Below, one piece after another: positions 4,291 to 49,998 of a stretch of 64,000 bases of DNA. This stretch comes from an uncultured Actinomycetota bacterium (GTDB lineage Bacteria; Actinomycetota; Actinomycetes; S36-B12; UBA10799): the NCBI GenBank assembly GCA_963704075.1, contig CAVPGV010000009.1, positions 244,286-308,285 on the forward strand. Reading direction: 5' to 3'. The notes under the pieces are model-generated. The model searched no databases and was not told the DNA's origin. It was given only the letters and a program-made list of their open reading frames with translations. Made by a program: the position numbers and the translations under genes. Position 1 is the first letter of the stretch. Every line of letters begins with the position of its first letter.

Positions 4291-5563
4291 TGTGCGGCTC
4301 CTGTTCGACGGCCGGGACATTGCTCGGTTCGAGCAACTCCTGGCCGGGCATCGGCGGGACCGGGTGACCGCCGGCGAAGGGGTCCACCGGCTCGGCGGAC
4401 GCCACCTCGGCGGCCTCCTGTGCTTCGGCACGGCGATCGCGGTGCACCTGCGCGACATACGACGAGATGATCAGCAACACCAGCGCGAATCCGAAGGCCA
4501 CCATCACCTGCAGATACGCCGACCCGTCGGGGCCGATGGCGTAGCGGGCGACCGACGCCACGATGATCCAGGCCAGGGCGGTCGGGATGAGCACCTTCCA
4601 GCCGAACCGCATGAACTGGTCGTAGCGCAACCGCGGCAGGGTGCCGCGCAGCCAGATGAACACGAAGATGAACGAGACCACCTTCATCAGGAACCAGAGC
4701 ATCGGCCACCAGCCCTCGTTGGCCCCGGACCAGATCGAGATCGGCCAGGGCGCCCGCCAGCCGCCGAGGAACAGCGTGGTGGCAAGCGCCGAGACAGTGA
4801 CCATGTTGATGTACTCGGCCAGGAAGAACATCGCGAACTTCAGCGACGAGTACTCGGTGTGGAAACCGCCCACCAGTTCACCCTCGGCTTCGGGCAGGTC
4901 GAAGGGCGCCCGGTTGACCTCTCCGACCATCGAGGTGGCGTAGATGATGAACGACGGAAGCAGGAGCAGCACGTACCAGAGTTTCGTCTGGGCGTTGACG
5001 ATCTCGGAGGTCGAGGCGCTGCCGGCGAAGAGGAAGACGGCCACGAACGACAGACCCATCGCGATCTCGTAGGAGATCATCTGCGCGGTGCTGCGCAGAC
5101 TGCCGAGCAGCGGATAGGTCGAGCCGGACGCCCAGCCGGCCAGCACGATGCCGTAGATGCCGATCGAGGCGATCGCCAGCACGTACAGGACGCTGACCGG
5201 GAAGTCCGTCAGTTGCAGCATCGTGGTCTGACCGAAGATCGAGACTTCCGGGCCGAACGGGATGACCGCGAAGGCCATGAACGCGGGCACCGCGGACAGG
5301 ATCGGCGCCAGGATGTACACGCCGAGTTCCACCTTGCGCGGGATGACTTCTTCCTTGAGGGCGAGTTTGAACCCGTCCATCAATGACTGCAGCAACCCGA
5401 ACGGGCCCACCCGGTTGGGGCCGACCCGGCTCTGCATCCGGGCGACCACGCGGCGCTCACCCCAGATGGTCAGCAGCACGATGACCACCAGCAGGGCGAA
5501 CAGGGCGACGACCTTGAGCAGGATCAGCCAGAACGGGTCACTGCCGAACCCGGCCACGTTCAT
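4283..5563 (-). CDS. nuoH: NADH-quinone oxidoreductase subunit H
   Basis: 426-aa multi-TM ND1-like ORF. Operon position fits, and it has a 4-nt overlap with the nuoG end. Confidence 0.9.
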
Positions 5564-7973
5564 GAAACCCTCCCGACGCTCACACGCACCGTATCGCCGC
5601 TGGCCACGCCGAGTGCGGACACCACGTTGGTTCCCGAATTCGTGGGCAACCAGACCACCCCGGACGGCATGTCGGTGACCAACGCCGGCAGCGTCAGGGA
5701 GCCGACGTCACCGGTGACGGTGACCGGGTCCCCGTCGGAGATCCCGAGGTCGCTGGCGTTGGCCGGACTCAGCCGCACTACTGGGGGTCGGGCGGTGGCG
5801 GCCATGTACGGCTCACCGGCCTGCATGGATCCGTCGTCGATGAGTTGGTGCCAGGTGGCCAGGACCGCCTCGCCGGGCGCCAGCCGCGACGGTTCGGCCG
5901 GCGGCTGCGCCGGAGCGGCGGGACGGCTCTGCTGCCTGCGCTCCCAGGGCGATCGGCTCGGCCTGCGGCTCCAGCAGCATCTCGTCGCTGATCGCGGACA
6001 GCACAGCCGCGTCAGTCAGGATGAGCGACTCGCGGAACACCTGTGGGAACGGTCGGCGTCTGCCTTCCCAATCGGTGTAGGAGCCGGCCTTCTCGGTGAC
6101 CGCCGCCACCGGGAACACCACGTCCGCGGCGCGGGTGGCAGCGTTGTGGTGCGTGGCCAGCGCCACGACACACGGCACCTGCTCGAAGCCGGTGACCAGT
6201 GCGGCACCGTCGGGCACGTCCATAGGGTCGAATCCGGCCACCAGCAGCGCACGGTAGGGCGGCTCCGGCTCCTCGGCCACCTCGGCTGCGGGGTCCTCCT
6301 GAATGTCCTCTGCGACATCCTCTTCGGCGACCGGCACCAGTGCCTCCCGCGGCTGTGCGGCGGCGACGAGGCGCTCGGTGACCCCGGCGAACCCGACGCC
6401 CGCGTCACCGTTCCACAGGGCGGGTGCGGCACCGGGCAGCAGCCCTGCGTCCAGCGCACCGCGCTCACCGGCGCGTCGCGGCACCCACGCCAGGCGGGCA
6501 CCGGTCTGCGCAGCCGTGGCGGCCAGCCAGCTGAGCAGGCCCTGCGAGGTGGCGGCACGCTCACCGACCATGAGCACCGCACCGGGCTGACGCAACGCCT
6601 GCATCAACGTCTTCGGACCCGGACATGGCTGCGATCTCCTGACCGGGACCGGCGGCCAGGACGGTGGCGGCGAGTTTGGACAATCCCGGGCTCGCCCAGG
6701 GTGCGACCGCGAAGACCTTCGTCGATCCCTTGGTCACCGCCTTGCGCAGGCGCAGGAAGACGATCGGCGACTCCTCCTCCGGCTCGAAAGCAACCAGCAC
6801 CACGGCCGGCGCCACATCGAGGTCGCTGTAGGTGGGACCCTGCGTACCGGCGATCGTGGAGGTCAGGAACGCGGCCTCCTCGTCGCTGCTGGGGCGGGCC
6901 CGGAAGTCGACGTCGTCGGTCTTGAGCACGCTGCGGGCGAACGTCGAGTAGGCCTGCGCGTCCTCTGCCGTCAGCCGGCCGCCCACCAGGACGGCGGCAC
7001 TGCCCGCGGCGGCGGCCAGCGCGTCGGCGGCGATCCCCAAGGCCTCGGGCCACGAGGCGGTGACCAGTCGACCGGCCTCGTCACGGACCAGCGGATGGGT
7101 GATGCGGTCCTCGGTCAGATAGGTGAAGGCGAACCGGCCCTTGTCGCAGTTCCACTCCTCGTTGACCTGCGGGTCGTCACCGGCCAGCCGTCGCTGCACC
7201 TCGCCGCGCCGCACGTCGGTGCGCATCGCGCAGCCGCTGGCGCAGTGCTCGCAGACCGTGGGAACCGACACCAGGTCGAACGGCCGCGCCCGGAACCGGT
7301 AGCGCGCGTTGGTCAGCGCCCCGACCGGGCAGATCTGCACGGTGTTGCCGGAGAAGTACGAGTCGAACGGGGTGTCCTGGCTGATCCCGACCTGCTGCTG
7401 CGCACCCCGCTCCAGCAGGTCGATGAAGGCGTCACCGGCGATCTCGTCGGCGAACCGGGTGCAGCGGGCACACGAAACGCACCGTTCCCGGTCGAGCAGG
7501 ATCTGCGCGCTGACGTTGATCGGCTTCGGGAAGGTGCGTTTCGGCCCCTCGAACCGGGTCTCCGACCGGCCGGCGGTCATCGCCTGGTTCTGCAGCGGAC
7601 ACTCTCCGCCCTTGTCGCAGATCGGGCAGTCCAGCGGGTGGTTGAGCAGAAGGAATTCCATCACGCCGCGCTGAGCGTCGTCGGCGACCTTCGAGGTGCG
7701 CTGCGTCCGCACCACCATGTTGTCGGCCACCGGGATCGCACAGGCGGGCTGAGGTTTCGGCTGCCCCTCGATCTCGATCAGGCACATGCGGCAGGCGGCG
7801 ACCGGATCCAGCAGCGGGTGGTCGCAGAAGCGTGGGATCTCGATACCCAGCTGCTCGGCCGCGCGGATGATCAGCGTGCCCTTCTCCGCGGTCATCGAGA
7901 CCCCGTCGATGGAGAAGGCCACGTGGCCCTCCGGCACCGTCATCTCGTTGCTGTCCGGGTCTGTGACGGTCAT
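5560..7973 (-). pseudogene. nuoG: NADH-quinone oxidoreductase subunit G, two frame breaks as assembled
   Basis: Three collinear pieces: 6561..7973, 5813..6607 and 5560..5826. The N-terminus has Fe-S Cys motifs ([32 protein letters not shown]). The start at 7973 forms an ATGA overlap with the nuoF stop. Frame changes lie near 6605-6625 and 5880-5935. The span is 2414 nt, which is 3n+2. Confidence 0.85.
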
Positions 7974-11258: not shown

Positions 11259-11947
11259 TTGTACTCCCGGCGGGTGTCCGGCGGTGGGATGGTGGCCCCC
11301 TTGTACTCCACCGGGATGCCGCCCAGTGGATAGTCCTTGCGCTGCGGATGCCCGACCCAGTCGTCGGGCATCTCGATCCGGGTCAGGCCGGGGTGGCCGT
11401 CGAAGATCACGCCGAAGAAGTCGTAGGTCTCCCGCTCGTGCCAGTTGTTGCCGGGGTAGATCTCCACGATCGACGGCACGTGCGGGTCATCGTCGGGGCA
11501 GGTGACCTCGACGGACAGCCGTCGGTTGTGGGTCATGGACAGCATCGGGTAGTGGATGTGCAACTCGCGGCCGGTGTCCTCGGGCCAGTGGACCCCACTG
11601 GCTCCCATGCACATCTCGAACCGCAGATCGGGGTGGTCACGCAAGTGGCGCATCACCGACAACAGGTGCTCGCGCTCGACCTCGAGGGTCAGTTGGTCGT
11701 GCTGGATGACCACCTTGGAAACGGCCGGGCCGAAGTCGCTGCCGAGTTGCTCGGCGAGGGTGTCGACGACCTGGTCGTACCAGCCCCCGTAGGGACGGGT
11801 GGCCGCCGCCGCGGCGTGGACGGTGCGGGCCAACCCTCCGTACCCGCTGACGTCGGGGGTGCCTTCGGCGCCGAAAGCGCCCTGGCCGGTCGCCAGCACC
11901 TCGAGGGTCTCGGTCCCCGCGGGGACGACCTCGGAGTTCTCAGTCAC
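11255..11947 (-). CDS. nuoC: NADH-quinone oxidoreductase subunit C
   Basis: 230 aa, 30-kDa subunit-like ([19 protein letters not shown]). It has 4-nt overlaps on both sides. Confidence 0.9.
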
Positions 11948-47582: not shown

Positions 47583-47685
47583 GTTTCCTCCGCTGGCATT
47601 ACCCAGATCAGGTTGTGTGGGTCGGCCACGCAGACGGTGACCCTCTCAGCCCGGCTGACCCGAGCTCCCCATGTGACCCCAGGCT
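47583..47685 (-). promoter_or_regulatory. TPP (thiamine pyrophosphate) riboswitch in the leader of the ABC importer
   Basis: The minus strand reads ...GGGGAGCUCGGGUCAGCCGGGCUGAGAGGGUCACCGUCUGCGUGGCCGACCCACACAACCUGAUCUGGGUAAUGCCAGCGGAGGAAACGUG. It contains the invariant CUGAGA and the ACCUGAUCUGG-UAAUGCCAGCG THI-box core. The 3' end runs into the SD sequence and the GTG start. Confidence 0.85.
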
Positions 47686-47728
47686 ACCGCCGGATGTCAG
47701 GCTCCGGACACCGGTACCTTGGGAAGCC

Positions 47729-48322
47729 ATGGATGCGGAGTGGTTCGGCTACGCCGGCGCGGCACTGATGACGGCCATGTCGCTGCCACAGATCGCGCGC
47801 ATCGTGCGTGACCGCAGCGCGGCGGGGGTCAGCCTTCTGACGTGGACGATCTTCGCACTGTCCGGCACCAGCTGGCTGGCGTACGGACTGATCCTTCAGG
47901 CACCCGCGATCATCGTCGGCAACGTGACGTTCATCGCCACGACAGTGCCGGTGGTGGTCCTGCTGCTGCGGCGGCAGCACGCGTGGCCGCTGCCCGCGGC
48001 CGTGCTGGTACCACTGGTCGCGGTGGCGGTAGGGGTCGCGGTGCTGAGCCTCCTGCCCGGTGCGGTGGCCTCCAGCCTGGGGGTGGTGTGCGGCATCCTG
48101 ACCACAGTTCCGCAACTGCTCGAATCGATCAGCCGGCGCAGGGCGGGGGCTACTTCCGAGGTGTCGTTGGCCACGCTGTTCCTGCTGCTGGCCGGGCAGT
48201 CCCTGTGGCTGACGTACGGGCTCACCCGCCCGGACCTGCCGATGATCGTGACGAACGTCGTGGCGGTCACGGTGACAACCAGCCTGATCGCCGTGGAGTC
48301 CCGGACTCCTGCGAGAGTGTGA
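47729..48322 (+). CDS. PQ-loop repeat membrane protein with 7-TM (3+1+3) layout
   Basis: ATG at 47729 followed by 197 codons. Two PQ motifs (MSLPQIARIV and TTVPQLLESI) each open a 3-helix bundle, and the bundles are separated by one linker helix. Confidence 0.65.
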   Translation: MDAEWFGYAGAALMTAMSLPQIARIVRDRSAAGVSLLTWTIFALSGTSWLAYGLILQAPAIIVGNVTFIATTVPVVVLLLRRQHAWPLPAAVLVPLVAVAVGVAVLSLLPGAVASSLGVVCGILTTVPQLLESISRRRAGATSEVSLATLFLLLAGQSLWLTYGLTRPDLPMIVTNVVAVTVTTSLIAVESRTPARV

Positions 48323-48347
48323 GGGGCCGTCGCGACGGGTCCTGATC

Positions 48348-48456
48348 CGTTGGACTTGCGTACGGACGTTGGAGATCGGTACAGACGTTGGACAGGCAAC
48401 GCCCGTGCAACTCCAACCCCGGTGCCCAAGTCCAACATCTGTGCGCAACTCCAACG
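48348..48456. promoter_or_regulatory. Mirror-symmetric array of six GTTGGA(C/G) motifs overlapping a putative promoter
   Basis: CGTTGGAC, CGTTGGAG and CGTTGGAC start at 48348, 48367 and 48386 (19-bp period). Their complements CTCCAAC, GTCCAAC and CTCCAAC start at 48411, 48430 and 48449, with the same period. All three pairs are symmetric about position ~48402. TATAGT at 48479-48484 lies 6 nt before ATG 48491. Confidence 0.6.
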
Positions 48457-48490
48457 CCTGGTGAAATACCCCCTGGGGTATAGTGAAGTC

Positions 48491-48982
48491 ATGCCAACCT
48501 GCCCCTTCACGGCCTTTCTCAGTTGGCCCCTGCGGCGGTGGATCGTCGCTGCGGCCGTGGCTGCAGGCACGTTCCTGCTGCTCGGCCTGAGCACCGCGGT
48601 GATCCCCAACCCCGTCTTCAGCCGAAGCATCCCGCCGACGAGCTGGGCGATGAACGTGCTGATCGTGACGTCGGTCCTCACCGGGCTGCTCACCGCCACA
48701 TACGTCGCCGCAACCACCCCGTCCGGACTAGACCGCAAAGGCACGGTCGGTGCCCTGCTGGCATACCTGGCCATCGGCTGCCCCGTGTGCAACAAGTTGG
48801 CACTGATCGTTCTCGGCGCGTCCGGTGCGGTGCAGTTCTTCGCCCCGATGCAGCCCTATCTGGCGGCCGCGGGGATCATCGCGCTGCTGTGGGCCCTTTC
48901 GGTGCGGCTGCGCGGTGAGATGACGTGCGGCTGGTCCCCGCCGGTCGAACAACCCACTGAGGCCGAACGGCTGGGATCGTGA
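48491..48982 (+). CDS. Membrane protein with intramembrane CPVC motif
   Basis: ATG at 48491 (MPTCPFTAFLSWPLRRW...) followed by 163 codons and about 4 TM helices. IGCPVCNKLALIVLG lies in a hydrophobic segment. The stop overlaps the next start (GTGA). Confidence 0.6.
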   Translation: MPTCPFTAFLSWPLRRWIVAAAVAAGTFLLLGLSTAVIPNPVFSRSIPPTSWAMNVLIVTSVLTGLLTATYVAATTPSGLDRKGTVGALLAYLAIGCPVCNKLALIVLGASGAVQFFAPMQPYLAAAGIIALLWALSVRLRGEMTCGWSPPVEQPTEAERLGS

Positions 48983-49998
48983 GTTTCCGCCTGGACTCGT
49001 TCGCGCCCAATTGGGGGGCGTCGGTGATGGGCACCTCCGTGGTCGCAGTCGCGACCGCCGCGATCGGCTGGCCGGTGTGGATCTCCCGGACGCTTCTCAT
49101 CCTCGCGTCCCTGGTGGCCGTCGTGGTCCTGGTGGTCACCGGCGCCCGGTGGGTCCGGCATCGGGAGCTGGCTCTGGCCGACCTGCGCCATCCGATCAAG
49201 GGCGGAATGACGGCCACGGTCGCCGGCGGCCTTCTCGCCTGGGCCGTGGCGATCGGGCGGATCGGAGCCGGTTGGCTGCCCGACGACCTCGTGACCGTCG
49301 CCGTTGCCGTACTGACCGTGTCGGGGGCTGTGGTCGCGCTCATGATCGGCTGGGCGTTCATGACCAACCTGTTCACCAGTCAGAGCACCCCCACCGAGCA
49401 CATCAGCGGCGCCTGGTTCATCCCGCCGGTGGTGACGATCATCATCCCGCTCGCTCTGGTTCCGCTGGCCCTCGAACTGCCCGACATCTCCGCGGACCTG
49501 TTGGCACTCGGATGGGGTTTCCTTGGAATGGGCGCAGTTCTCTACTTCGTGGTGACCGCGGTGCTGTTCCTGCGCACCGTGTCCCATCCGTTGCCTCCGG
49601 ACGCCCTGGCGCCGACGTTGTTCATCGGGATGGGTCCTGCCGGGCTCATGGGCCTGGACATGGTGCGCCTCGCGCAAGCCTCCGGAAACCCTGGACTGGT
49701 CGAGGCGATGACGCCGCTGGCCACCATGATGTGGGGCTTCGGCTTCTGGTGGATGATCGCGTCCCTGCTGGTGATCCGGCGTGGCTACGGACGACTGCCG
49801 TTCTCGCTGTCCTGGTGGGGTTTCGTGTTTCCGTTCGGTGCGTGGACGGTCGCCACGAGCGTGCTCGCGCAGACCTGGGATGCCGGCCTGTTCGACGTGC
49901 TGGCCTGGATCGCCACCGTGGTCCTGGTCGCCCTGTGGCTGATGACCTCCATCAGCACCCTCGCCGGGATCCGGCGCGGGACCATCTGGGCGCACTGA
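48979..49998 (+). CDS. TDT-family (TehA/Mae1/SLAC1-like) anion transporter
   Basis: 339 aa with about 10 TM helices. The N-terminal FAPNWGASVMGTSVVA pattern is typical of tellurite-resistance/dicarboxylate transporter family members. Confidence 0.7.
   Translation: MSFRLDSFAPNWGASVMGTSVVAVATAAIGWPVWISRTLLILASLVAVVVLVVTGARWVRHRELALADLRHPIKGGMTATVAGGLLAWAVAIGRIGAGWLPDDLVTVAVAVLTVSGAVVALMIGWAFMTNLFTSQSTPTEHISGAWFIPPVVTIIIPLALVPLALELPDISADLLALGWGFLGMGAVLYFVVTAVLFLRTVSHPLPPDALAPTLFIGMGPAGLMGLDMVRLAQASGNPGLVEAMTPLATMMWGFGFWWMIASLLVIRRGYGRLPFSLSWWGFVFPFGAWTVATSVLAQTWDAGLFDVLAWIATVVLVALWLMTSISTLAGIRRGTIWAH

Follow-up and report, generated by a model that had tools for sequence, protein, structure and literature searches.

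Short, non-coding and strictly intergenic imperfect palindromes, often located after stop codons or between convergent genes, are known in enterobacteria and pseudomonads as repetitive extragenic palindromic (REP) sequences and bacterial interspersed mosaic elements (BIMEs), a REP being a single palindrome of ~35 bp with a conserved 5' tetranucleotide. Contiguous transposase sites of 19-22 bp are arrayed at both ends of the Mu, Tn7 and Tn402/Tn5053-type transposons, the TniA sites of Tn402 being contiguous and 19 bp long. In Streptomyces conjugative plasmids, the clt arrays are recognised by an oligomeric protein and chromosomal copies have been proposed (PMC4447253, PMC3583192, PMC3429521). 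In the present work, we analysed a 64,000-nucleotide stretch of DNA from an uncultured Actinomycetota bacterium (assembly GCA_963704075.1, contig CAVPGV010000009.1, positions 244,286 to 308,285 of the forward strand; hereafter the window), in which six phased GTTGGAS motifs precede an operon coding for a membrane protein with CxxC motifs and a transporter of the TDT family. The original prediction took these motifs for an operator of this operon or an iteron-like element. The observation is confirmed; the meaning given to it in the prediction proved wrong for the most part, and findings of this kind are ordinary. The array is best explained, with reasonable though far from complete confidence, as one copy of a mosaic repeat resembling either MITEs (miniature inverted-repeat transposable elements) or REP/BIME sequences, a bystander to the control of the operon by a CsoR/CstR-type operator.

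The mirrored array and its dispersed repeat family

On the + strand, three direct motifs (CGTTGGAC at 48348 and 48386, CGTTGGAG at 48367), located by reading of the sequence and with a repeat finder, are mirrored by CTCCAAC at 48411, GTCCAAC at 48430 and CTCCAAC at 48449. The period is exactly 19 bp in the direct set as in the inverted one, and the three direct/inverted pairs have a common centre at 48402; every coordinate given in the original prediction was found to be correct. Each motif of the left arm is followed by a variable 4-nt stretch and then by a GYAC box, and in the whole copy a central CACGG/CCGTG-like core is flanked by two arms of three 19-bp modules each. Taken singly, the GTTGGAS heptamers of the window show no enrichment (20 versus 16.3 expected). 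The phased pair pattern occurs four times versus 0.31 expected, four occurrences being reached in none of 100 shuffles, and the phased arrangement is far beyond chance.

A pattern scan of metagenomes for three GTTGGAS motifs at 19-bp spacing matched at least 120 contigs, and the following counts are those among the matches listed (loci are designated by L and a number). Many matches are unrelated low-GC tandem repeats; a coherent set with a GC content of 0.65-0.68 agrees with the window copy both in its 3+3 layout and in the 62-bp offset between the arms. With the window element as query, nhmmer retrieved at least about 46 full-length copies of 112-125 bp on 31 contigs, which represent at least about 25 distinct sites once redundant contigs are removed. 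A profile hidden Markov model (HMM) built from 32 copies (alignment A1) recovers the copies at 90-129 bits, the window copy (48342-48462) scoring 113 bits. The family consensus derived from this alignment is CCACAGGCGTTGGAGTTGGGTACAnnCGTTGGAGATCGGTACAGnCGTTGGAGATCCACGGGCCGTGCAACTCCAACGGCTGTGCGnTTGTCCAACGTnTGTACnTAACTCCAACGCCTGCGC. Its terminal inverted repeats, (G)CRCAGGCGTTGGAS ... STCCAACGCCTGYG(C), begin with GCRCAGGCGTTGGAS. When all arms are collapsed, the logo of the 19-bp unit reads GYACA-NN-CGTTGGAS followed by four variable bases, CGTTGGAGATCGGTACAGA being an example of such a module.

None of the listed copies overlaps a confident open reading frame (ORF). By our own count, they lie between convergent (~6 sites), tandem (~10) or divergent (~2) gene pairs, often 20-80 bp from a stop codon. 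The flanking genes code for unrelated housekeeping functions (UvrD/PcrA, arginine deiminase, SRP54, SecA, PEP carboxylase, pyruvate kinase, pantothenate kinase) and no Pfam family is found in more than 2 of the 104 flanking ORFs. In the assembly ERZ795057, the contig of the orthologous locus (L137) has a coverage of 4.3x and three contigs with other copies (L096, L113 and L114) have coverages of 3.6-4.0x, similar values which fit a single genome carrying many copies. Tandem clusters of two or three copies are frequent, with periods of 131-355 bp, and those of L096/L152, L113 and L114 contain recurring linker motifs. The number of modules per arm ranges from 2 to 5, with four or five units in L141 and L108. 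The element is thus a lineage-specific, non-coding intergenic repeat with terminal inverted repeats, arrayed modules and a locally unstable copy number.

Within alignment A1, a GTGAGAG/CTCTCAC variant replaces GTTGGAG/CTCCAAC in particular units and marks subfamilies: it is the first unit in L096, L113, L114, L127, L133 and L176 and the third one in L145, L147 and L168. One subfamily has an additional GGGGCGGGAG module past the right end.

That the array could be a local accident, either a chance pattern or tandem repeats born by slippage and an inverted duplication unique to this locus, is hardly credible. The unit number does vary between copies (L141, L108 and the second copy of L001), indicating that slippage occurs, but the phased pattern is far above chance and the same full-length element is present at many unrelated loci.

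The lineage specificity was established at the orthologous promoters. A search of a genome collection with the CxxC protein gave 80 Actinomycetota loci, and the 260 bp upstream of each gene were scanned. A GTTGGA array was found at one locus, that of the closest relative (L001), a Micrococcales metagenome-assembled genome (MAG) from activated sludge whose CxxC protein is 94% identical in amino acid sequence and whose locus is syntenic with the window at ~85-90% nucleotide identity. The element is present there twice in tandem, at 5743-5859 (3+3 motifs) and 5874-5970 (3+2 motifs), and the copy number at the orthologous locus is one in the window versus about two in L001, L137 and L170. In L002-L004, L006, L008 and L010-L012, the SemiSWEET gene also lies directly upstream of the CxxC gene and the intergenic region, of ~40-60 bp, contains only the palindrome and the -10 element described below. 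Since L001 has the array and the other relatives do not, it should be a ~110-120-bp insertion confined to the organism of the window and its sister, whereas the palindrome and the leaderless-type geometry, present in relatives without array, are both ancestral.

These data bear on the original proposal, in which an oligomeric regulator would bind the six phased half-sites cooperatively and control the CxxC/TDT operon. The array does lie directly upstream of the promoter, ending at -36, and the sequence conservation of its motifs is compatible with binding by a protein. However, it is absent from 79 of the 80 orthologous upstream regions, where a different operator is conserved, and its copy number differs in L001; the comparison of the intergenic region in relatives, suggested with the prediction, did not reveal any conservation of the motif spacing. 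Furthermore, the array belongs to a dispersed family: identical arrays occupy at least about 25 unrelated intergenic sites, some between convergent genes without promoter, and the copies lie at variable distances from the start of the following gene. A 19-bp period also corresponds to 1.8 helical turns and should place successive sites on different faces of the helix. A role of the array as operator or iteron-like element of this operon is therefore very improbable.

In L008, the SemiSWEET frame may run through the operator to the TAG located inside GTATAGT (~5940-6000). In the same locus, GATCC-T-CGCCTG mirrors the flanks of the window element at the same distance from the operator, which is either an empty site or a coincidence. 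It was not relied on as an empty site, as the SemiSWEET ORF may span this stretch and CGCCTG is also found in the family consensus.

Sequence modules, predicted structure and candidate binding proteins

The possibility of one long imperfect hairpin, raised in the original prediction, is borne out in silico: the arms of the window array are 76% complementary across 45 nt and a 168-nt RNA hairpin of -73.7 kcal/mol is predicted. The C/G alternation of the motifs is out of register between the left and the right arm, so that the S position is a conserved mismatch in this hairpin. We also considered whether the element acts through the secondary structure of its RNA or single-stranded DNA. The hairpin would then terminate transcription independently of any factor, stabilise the 3' end or insulate the SemiSWEET gene from the next operon, as has been reported for REP sequences; this reading is unlikely. 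The predicted hairpin is more stable than that of shuffled sequences (z = -3.2 for RNA and -2.5 for DNA) and most copies lie just downstream of at least one gene. On the other hand, RNAalifold did not detect any compensatory pair in the family alignment. With the mirror hairpin set explicitly, the variable positions pair no better than shuffled columns (71% of the cells versus 75%, the observed value being reached in 500 of 500 shuffles), and in 31 of the 32 copies the middle module has an S position without pairing partner. No terminator signature with a U-tract was found, and the copies show no orientation bias relative to the flanking transcription (five co-directional and four opposite in our tabulation). 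A search of Rfam 15 with positions 48200-48600 yielded noise-level matches only (at most 18 bits, E of at least 0.5). A conserved hairpin as the selected feature was rejected for want of covariation, and a known RNA family because its matches were below threshold.

The motifs themselves are conserved. In the arm which was not used for the retrieval of the copies, the mismatch reaches 4.3% in the hexamers and 25.3% in the spacers. Over the whole alignment, the heterogeneity between columns is very strong (chi-square p ~1e-116) and the mean pairwise identity of the copies is 75%. Discrete types of module, such as GTTGGAG-ATCG-GTAC and GTTGGAC-AAMC-GCAC, recur at differing positions and in both arms. 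Conserved hexamers, variable spacers and the lack of covariation indicate that conservation bears on an asymmetric sequence module which is repeated. This points, probably, to recognition by a sequence-specific protein and not to a structured RNA or a cruciform, and the idea that the motifs are protein-recognition modules, already present in the original prediction, fits these data.

Arrays of the same architecture were found in related lineages. In L002 and L004, which are related Actinomycetota MAGs, two tandem CGTTAGG/CCTAAC elements with the mirrored 19-bp layout (L002, 10380-10640) and a weak match to the profile with the 3+3, 19-bp layout and GGTTAGAS in place of CGTTGGAS (L004, 5129-5237) were detected. 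A motif-blind scan of the window and L001-L080 (920 kb), which sought any hexamer present in three copies at one constant period between 15 and 25 bp and accompanied by inverted copies in the vicinity, gave six matches, all but one at a period of 19 bp (window, L001 and L002). The single period-16 match is TCCGGA in L016, a hexamer which is its own reverse complement and thus satisfies the mirror criterion trivially. A second family, in contigs of high GC content (0.70-0.74), consists of four CTTGGACCAC/GTTGGACCAC units at 19 bp and of three inverted units; it was found in L095 (~4709-4850) and also in L101, L155, L174, L181, L088 and L192, with ~100 bp of flank conserved on each side and differing neighbouring genes. 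Related lineages thus share the architecture and differ by shifted motifs, as would be expected from the co-evolution of a repeat and the protein binding it.

Two further observations were made on such arrays. In L192, the GTTGGACCAC-family array is interrupted at its centre by a gene whose product ends like a transposase of the IS30 family. A third kind of array, in which GTTGGACAACCTGCTGCTC (19 bp) is repeated in long runs and GGTGATCCGTYGGACCGCA repeats come next, is present on contigs with a GC content of 0.73-0.74 (L093, 1-245, reverse strand; L123, ~11260-11650).

The protein recognising the modules could belong to the host or to a conjugative element. The arrays would then be dispersed chromosomal docking sites maintained by selection and not the remnants of transposons, the candidates being a nucleoid-associated protein or a hexameric DNA translocase of the FtsK/TraB type acting on clt-like chromosomal sequences. 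The six-fold better conservation of the motifs than of the spacers among diverged copies and the cousin families with co-shifted motifs are compatible with this idea. In actinomycete plasmids, TraB binds the clt loci, which consist of arrayed direct and inverted repeats of 7-9 bp, and clt-like sequences have been proposed to exist in chromosomes (PMC4447253, PMC3583192, PMC3429521, PMC11571958). Against it, no traB/ftsK-like gene or actinomycete integrative and conjugative element is linked to any copy, no match was found in the plasmid collection, and the published clt repeats do not show this regular 19-bp phasing; we regard the idea as doubtful. An ORF with an FtsK domain beside the GTTGGACCAC-family array of L095 was discarded as a lead to TraB/clt, being EccC-like and absent from the other contigs with this array. 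It is similarly a long shot that the 19-bp mirror arrays (lineage-specific motifs CGTTGGAS, GGTTAGAS, CGTTAGG and perhaps GTTGGACCAC) would form an undescribed superfamily of dispersed chromosomal protein-docking arrays in uncultured Actinomycetota, maintained by selection at each locus, for example loading or recognition sites of an oligomeric DNA translocase mobilising chromosomal DNA, or sites of a structural nucleoid protein.

In the preferred explanation, that of a MITE-like or REP/BIME-like repeat, the six motifs would be the two arms of one short, non-coding, quasi-palindromic element of an uncultured high-GC actinobacterial lineage. Each arm would be a head-to-tail array of three 19-bp modules (GYACA-NN-CGTTGGAS and four variable bases), and each module the docking site of a sequence-specific DNA-binding protein, most likely, by analogy with the Mu, Tn7 and Tn402-type ends, the transposase or recombinase which spreads the element. 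One copy would have landed between the SemiSWEET stop codon and the CxxC/TDT promoter in an ancestor shared with MAG JADKAV01, and a later local change would have left one copy in the window organism and two tandem copies in MAG JADKAV01. The array would not be a regulatory site of the operon.

Several points weigh against this explanation. No consistent direct repeat corresponding to a target-site duplication was found at the ends of the 32 copies, whose boundaries are defined to within a few bp, so that a duplication of 2-3 bp is possible. Neither the 120 metagenome loci listed nor the flanking ORFs contained an autonomous partner, with two arms flanking a transposase gene, and a recurrent transposase was not found in the neighbourhood of the copies either. 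The evidence of mobility is confined to differences in presence/absence and copy number, and the profile search found one copy only in the 64-kb window. In old and diverged copies, the motif conservation exceeds the neutral decay of dead MITE copies, which hints at selection at each site, i.e. at a host function. Moreover, the family counts come from the matches listed (at least 120 contigs), and their retrieval demanded three exact motifs on one arm, a bias corrected by the measurement on the other arm which still shapes the sample.

With respect to the origin of the family, no RAYT (IS200/IS605-like) transposase was found among the flanking ORFs. A phage origin was set aside, the viral scan having given only three unrelated low-GC tandem repeats, and a plasmid origin likewise, as BLAST against the plasmid collection gave no match for either array family. 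A literature search for an actinobacterial MITE of comparable kind did not return anything relevant; the repeat family appears to be undescribed and its modular architecture uncommon.

The promoter of the CxxC/TDT operon and its candidate operator

The repeat element lies after the SemiSWEET stop codon and before the CxxC promoter (Table 1), in DNA with a GC content of ~68%. The order of the CxxC and TDT genes is preserved in L001, L002, L008 and L010-L012, and the start of the TDT gene overlaps the stop codon of the CxxC gene. The hairpin which follows the SemiSWEET stop codon is missing from L001 and could be the remnant of a terminator.

Table 1. Features of the SemiSWEET-CxxC/TDT region (positions in the window).
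Feature	Position	Strand	Remarks
SemiSWEET/PQ-loop transporter gene, upstream neighbour	47615..48322	+	Order kept in close relatives
Short GC-rich hairpin GGGGCCGTCG/CGACGGGTCC	48323..48342	+	Inverted-repeat finder; directly after SemiSWEET stop
Dispersed quasi-palindromic intergenic repeat, ~120 bp, one copy	48342..48462	none	Extent from family profile (HMM, 113 bits)
Left arm, three direct modules	48348..48404	+	Motif starts 48348, 48367, 48386
Right arm, three inverted modules	48405..48456	-	Motif starts 48411, 48430, 48449
Perfect palindrome ATACCCC-CT-GGGGTAT, candidate operator	48466..48481	none	Overlaps -10; missed in the original prediction
Candidate -10 hexamer TATAGT	48479..48484	+	Followed by 6 nt, then ATG 48491
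Gene of Cys-rich membrane protein (163 aa; CPVC and further Cys motifs)	48491..48982	+	No Pfam family; weak MerT similarity
TDT/SLAC1/TehA-family anion transporter gene	48979..49998	+	PF03595 (3e-53), TIGR00816

The leaderless-type geometry of the promoter, with TATAGT ending 6 nt before the ATG, was upheld: in the orthologues (L001-L012 and others), a TANNNT box is also found ~6-7 nt before an ATG or GTG. This geometry, predicted from the sequence and conserved in the orthologues, is typical of leaderless mRNAs. A consensus promoter scan did not detect any sigma-70-type -35/-10 pair. The last motif of the array had been thought to occupy the -35 position. It extends in fact from -42 to -36 relative to the ATG (48449-48455), just upstream of the -35 site expected at 48456-48461, and neither of these two stretches resembles TTGACA.

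The promoter carries another sequence, the palindrome ATACCCCCTGGGGTAT, which fits ATACC-N6-GGTAT with a G/C tract. ATACC-N6-GGTAT is the site of the persulfide-sensing CsoR-like repressor ScCsoR of S. coelicolor (PMC7533328), and the palindrome of the window also resembles the operator of the S. mitis cst operon, ATATACCCTTATGGGGTATAT (PMC8643695). A palindrome of the form ATACC-N5-8-GGTAT was found in 35 of the 80 orthologous upstream regions, mostly 25-36 bp before the start codon, and in the closest relatives it is followed by the TANNNT box. In L007, L014, L048, L059 and L060, two ATACC-N6-GGTAT palindromes ~44-70 bp apart stand upstream of the CxxC gene and recall the two ScCsoR sites of the S. 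coelicolor pdo promoter.

In nine relatives, a neighbour of the CxxC gene codes for a protein of the CsoR family (PF02583). The two Cys of this protein are 29 residues apart and its Y position lacks a His, in agreement with the x-C-x-C pattern assigned to the CstR-type sensors (PMC8643695). In L045 (3451-7186) and L033 (983-3808), the CxxC gene belongs to cst-like clusters which contain, besides such a two-Cys regulator, several rhodaneses, a TauE/SafE sulfite exporter, a rhodanese-fusion protein, a thioredoxin and a pyridine-nucleotide-disulfide oxidoreductase, suggesting a role of the CxxC protein in persulfide or sulfite handling. The original prediction was right that no regulator gene is adjacent: neither a regular-expression search nor tblastn found any PF02583 gene in the 64-kb window, and a repressor of this family would have to act from elsewhere in the genome.

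The palindrome is a probable operator of a CsoR/CstR-family repressor. As it overlaps the -10 element, the bound repressor would occlude RNA polymerase. Control of the operon would therefore be exerted at this ancestral site of a leaderless-type promoter, by a repressor encoded elsewhere in the genome and probably persulfide-sensing. The conserved CstR-type operator and the gene context of the relatives place the CxxC/TDT operon, probably, in a reactive-sulfur (persulfide/sulfite) regulon. By analogy with the yeast sulfite pump Ssu1, a member of the TDT family, the transporter may export an anion such as sulfite.

Significance and comparison with known systems

Models of how the CxxC/TDT operon is regulated should be built on the CsoR/CstR-type operator together with the leaderless promoter, and not on the conspicuous array. 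The operator puts a transporter of the TDT/TehA family and a CxxC membrane protein in a probable reactive-sulfur regulon, which is a testable prediction. The repeat family adds modestly to the interspersed repeats catalogued in bacteria; its uncommon features, three phased modules per arm and conservation restricted to the motifs, offer a good handle for finding the protein which recognises it. In actinobacterial MAGs from activated sludge and freshwater, the family can also serve as a practical marker and is a hazard for assembly.

With REP/BIME sequences, the element shares an intergenic imperfect palindrome often placed after stop codons or between convergent genes, and tandem clusters with recurring linkers; it differs from them by its three phased 19-bp modules per arm and by a stem without covariation. 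Like the bacterial MITEs (Correia/NEMIS, RUP, Tn3-derived TIMEs), it measures ~120 bp, has terminal inverted repeats (GCRCAGGCGTTGGAS) and no coding capacity, is present in many dispersed copies and is present or absent between close relatives. Unlike them, it has shown neither a target-site duplication nor an autonomous parent and its motifs are conserved beyond what is seen in decaying copies.

The likeness to the Mu, Tn7 and Tn402 ends lies in the architecture only: contiguous asymmetric sites of ~15-19 bp placed head-to-tail, ends mutually inverted and a 19-bp period. The 5'-TG...CA-3' termini and an associated transposase or AAA+ helper gene are lacking here. The clt loci of Streptomyces plasmids are comparable in their 7-9-bp direct and inverted repeats, represented here by the 8-bp CGTTGGAS in three direct and three inverted copies. 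The present arrays, known from sequence, differ by the absence of a traB neighbour, by their regular phasing and mirror symmetry and by their non-streptomycete host.

As for the operator, it differs from the CstR/ScCsoR systems in that the regulator is not encoded within 64 kb, binding is predicted from the sequence, and the genes which would be regulated code for a CxxC membrane protein and a TDT transporter instead of pdo/tauE. It shares with the operators of these systems the ATACC-N6-GGTAT form, the G/C tract and the overlap with the core promoter, and the relatives share the regulon context of rhodaneses, TauE and a two-Cys PF02583 regulator.

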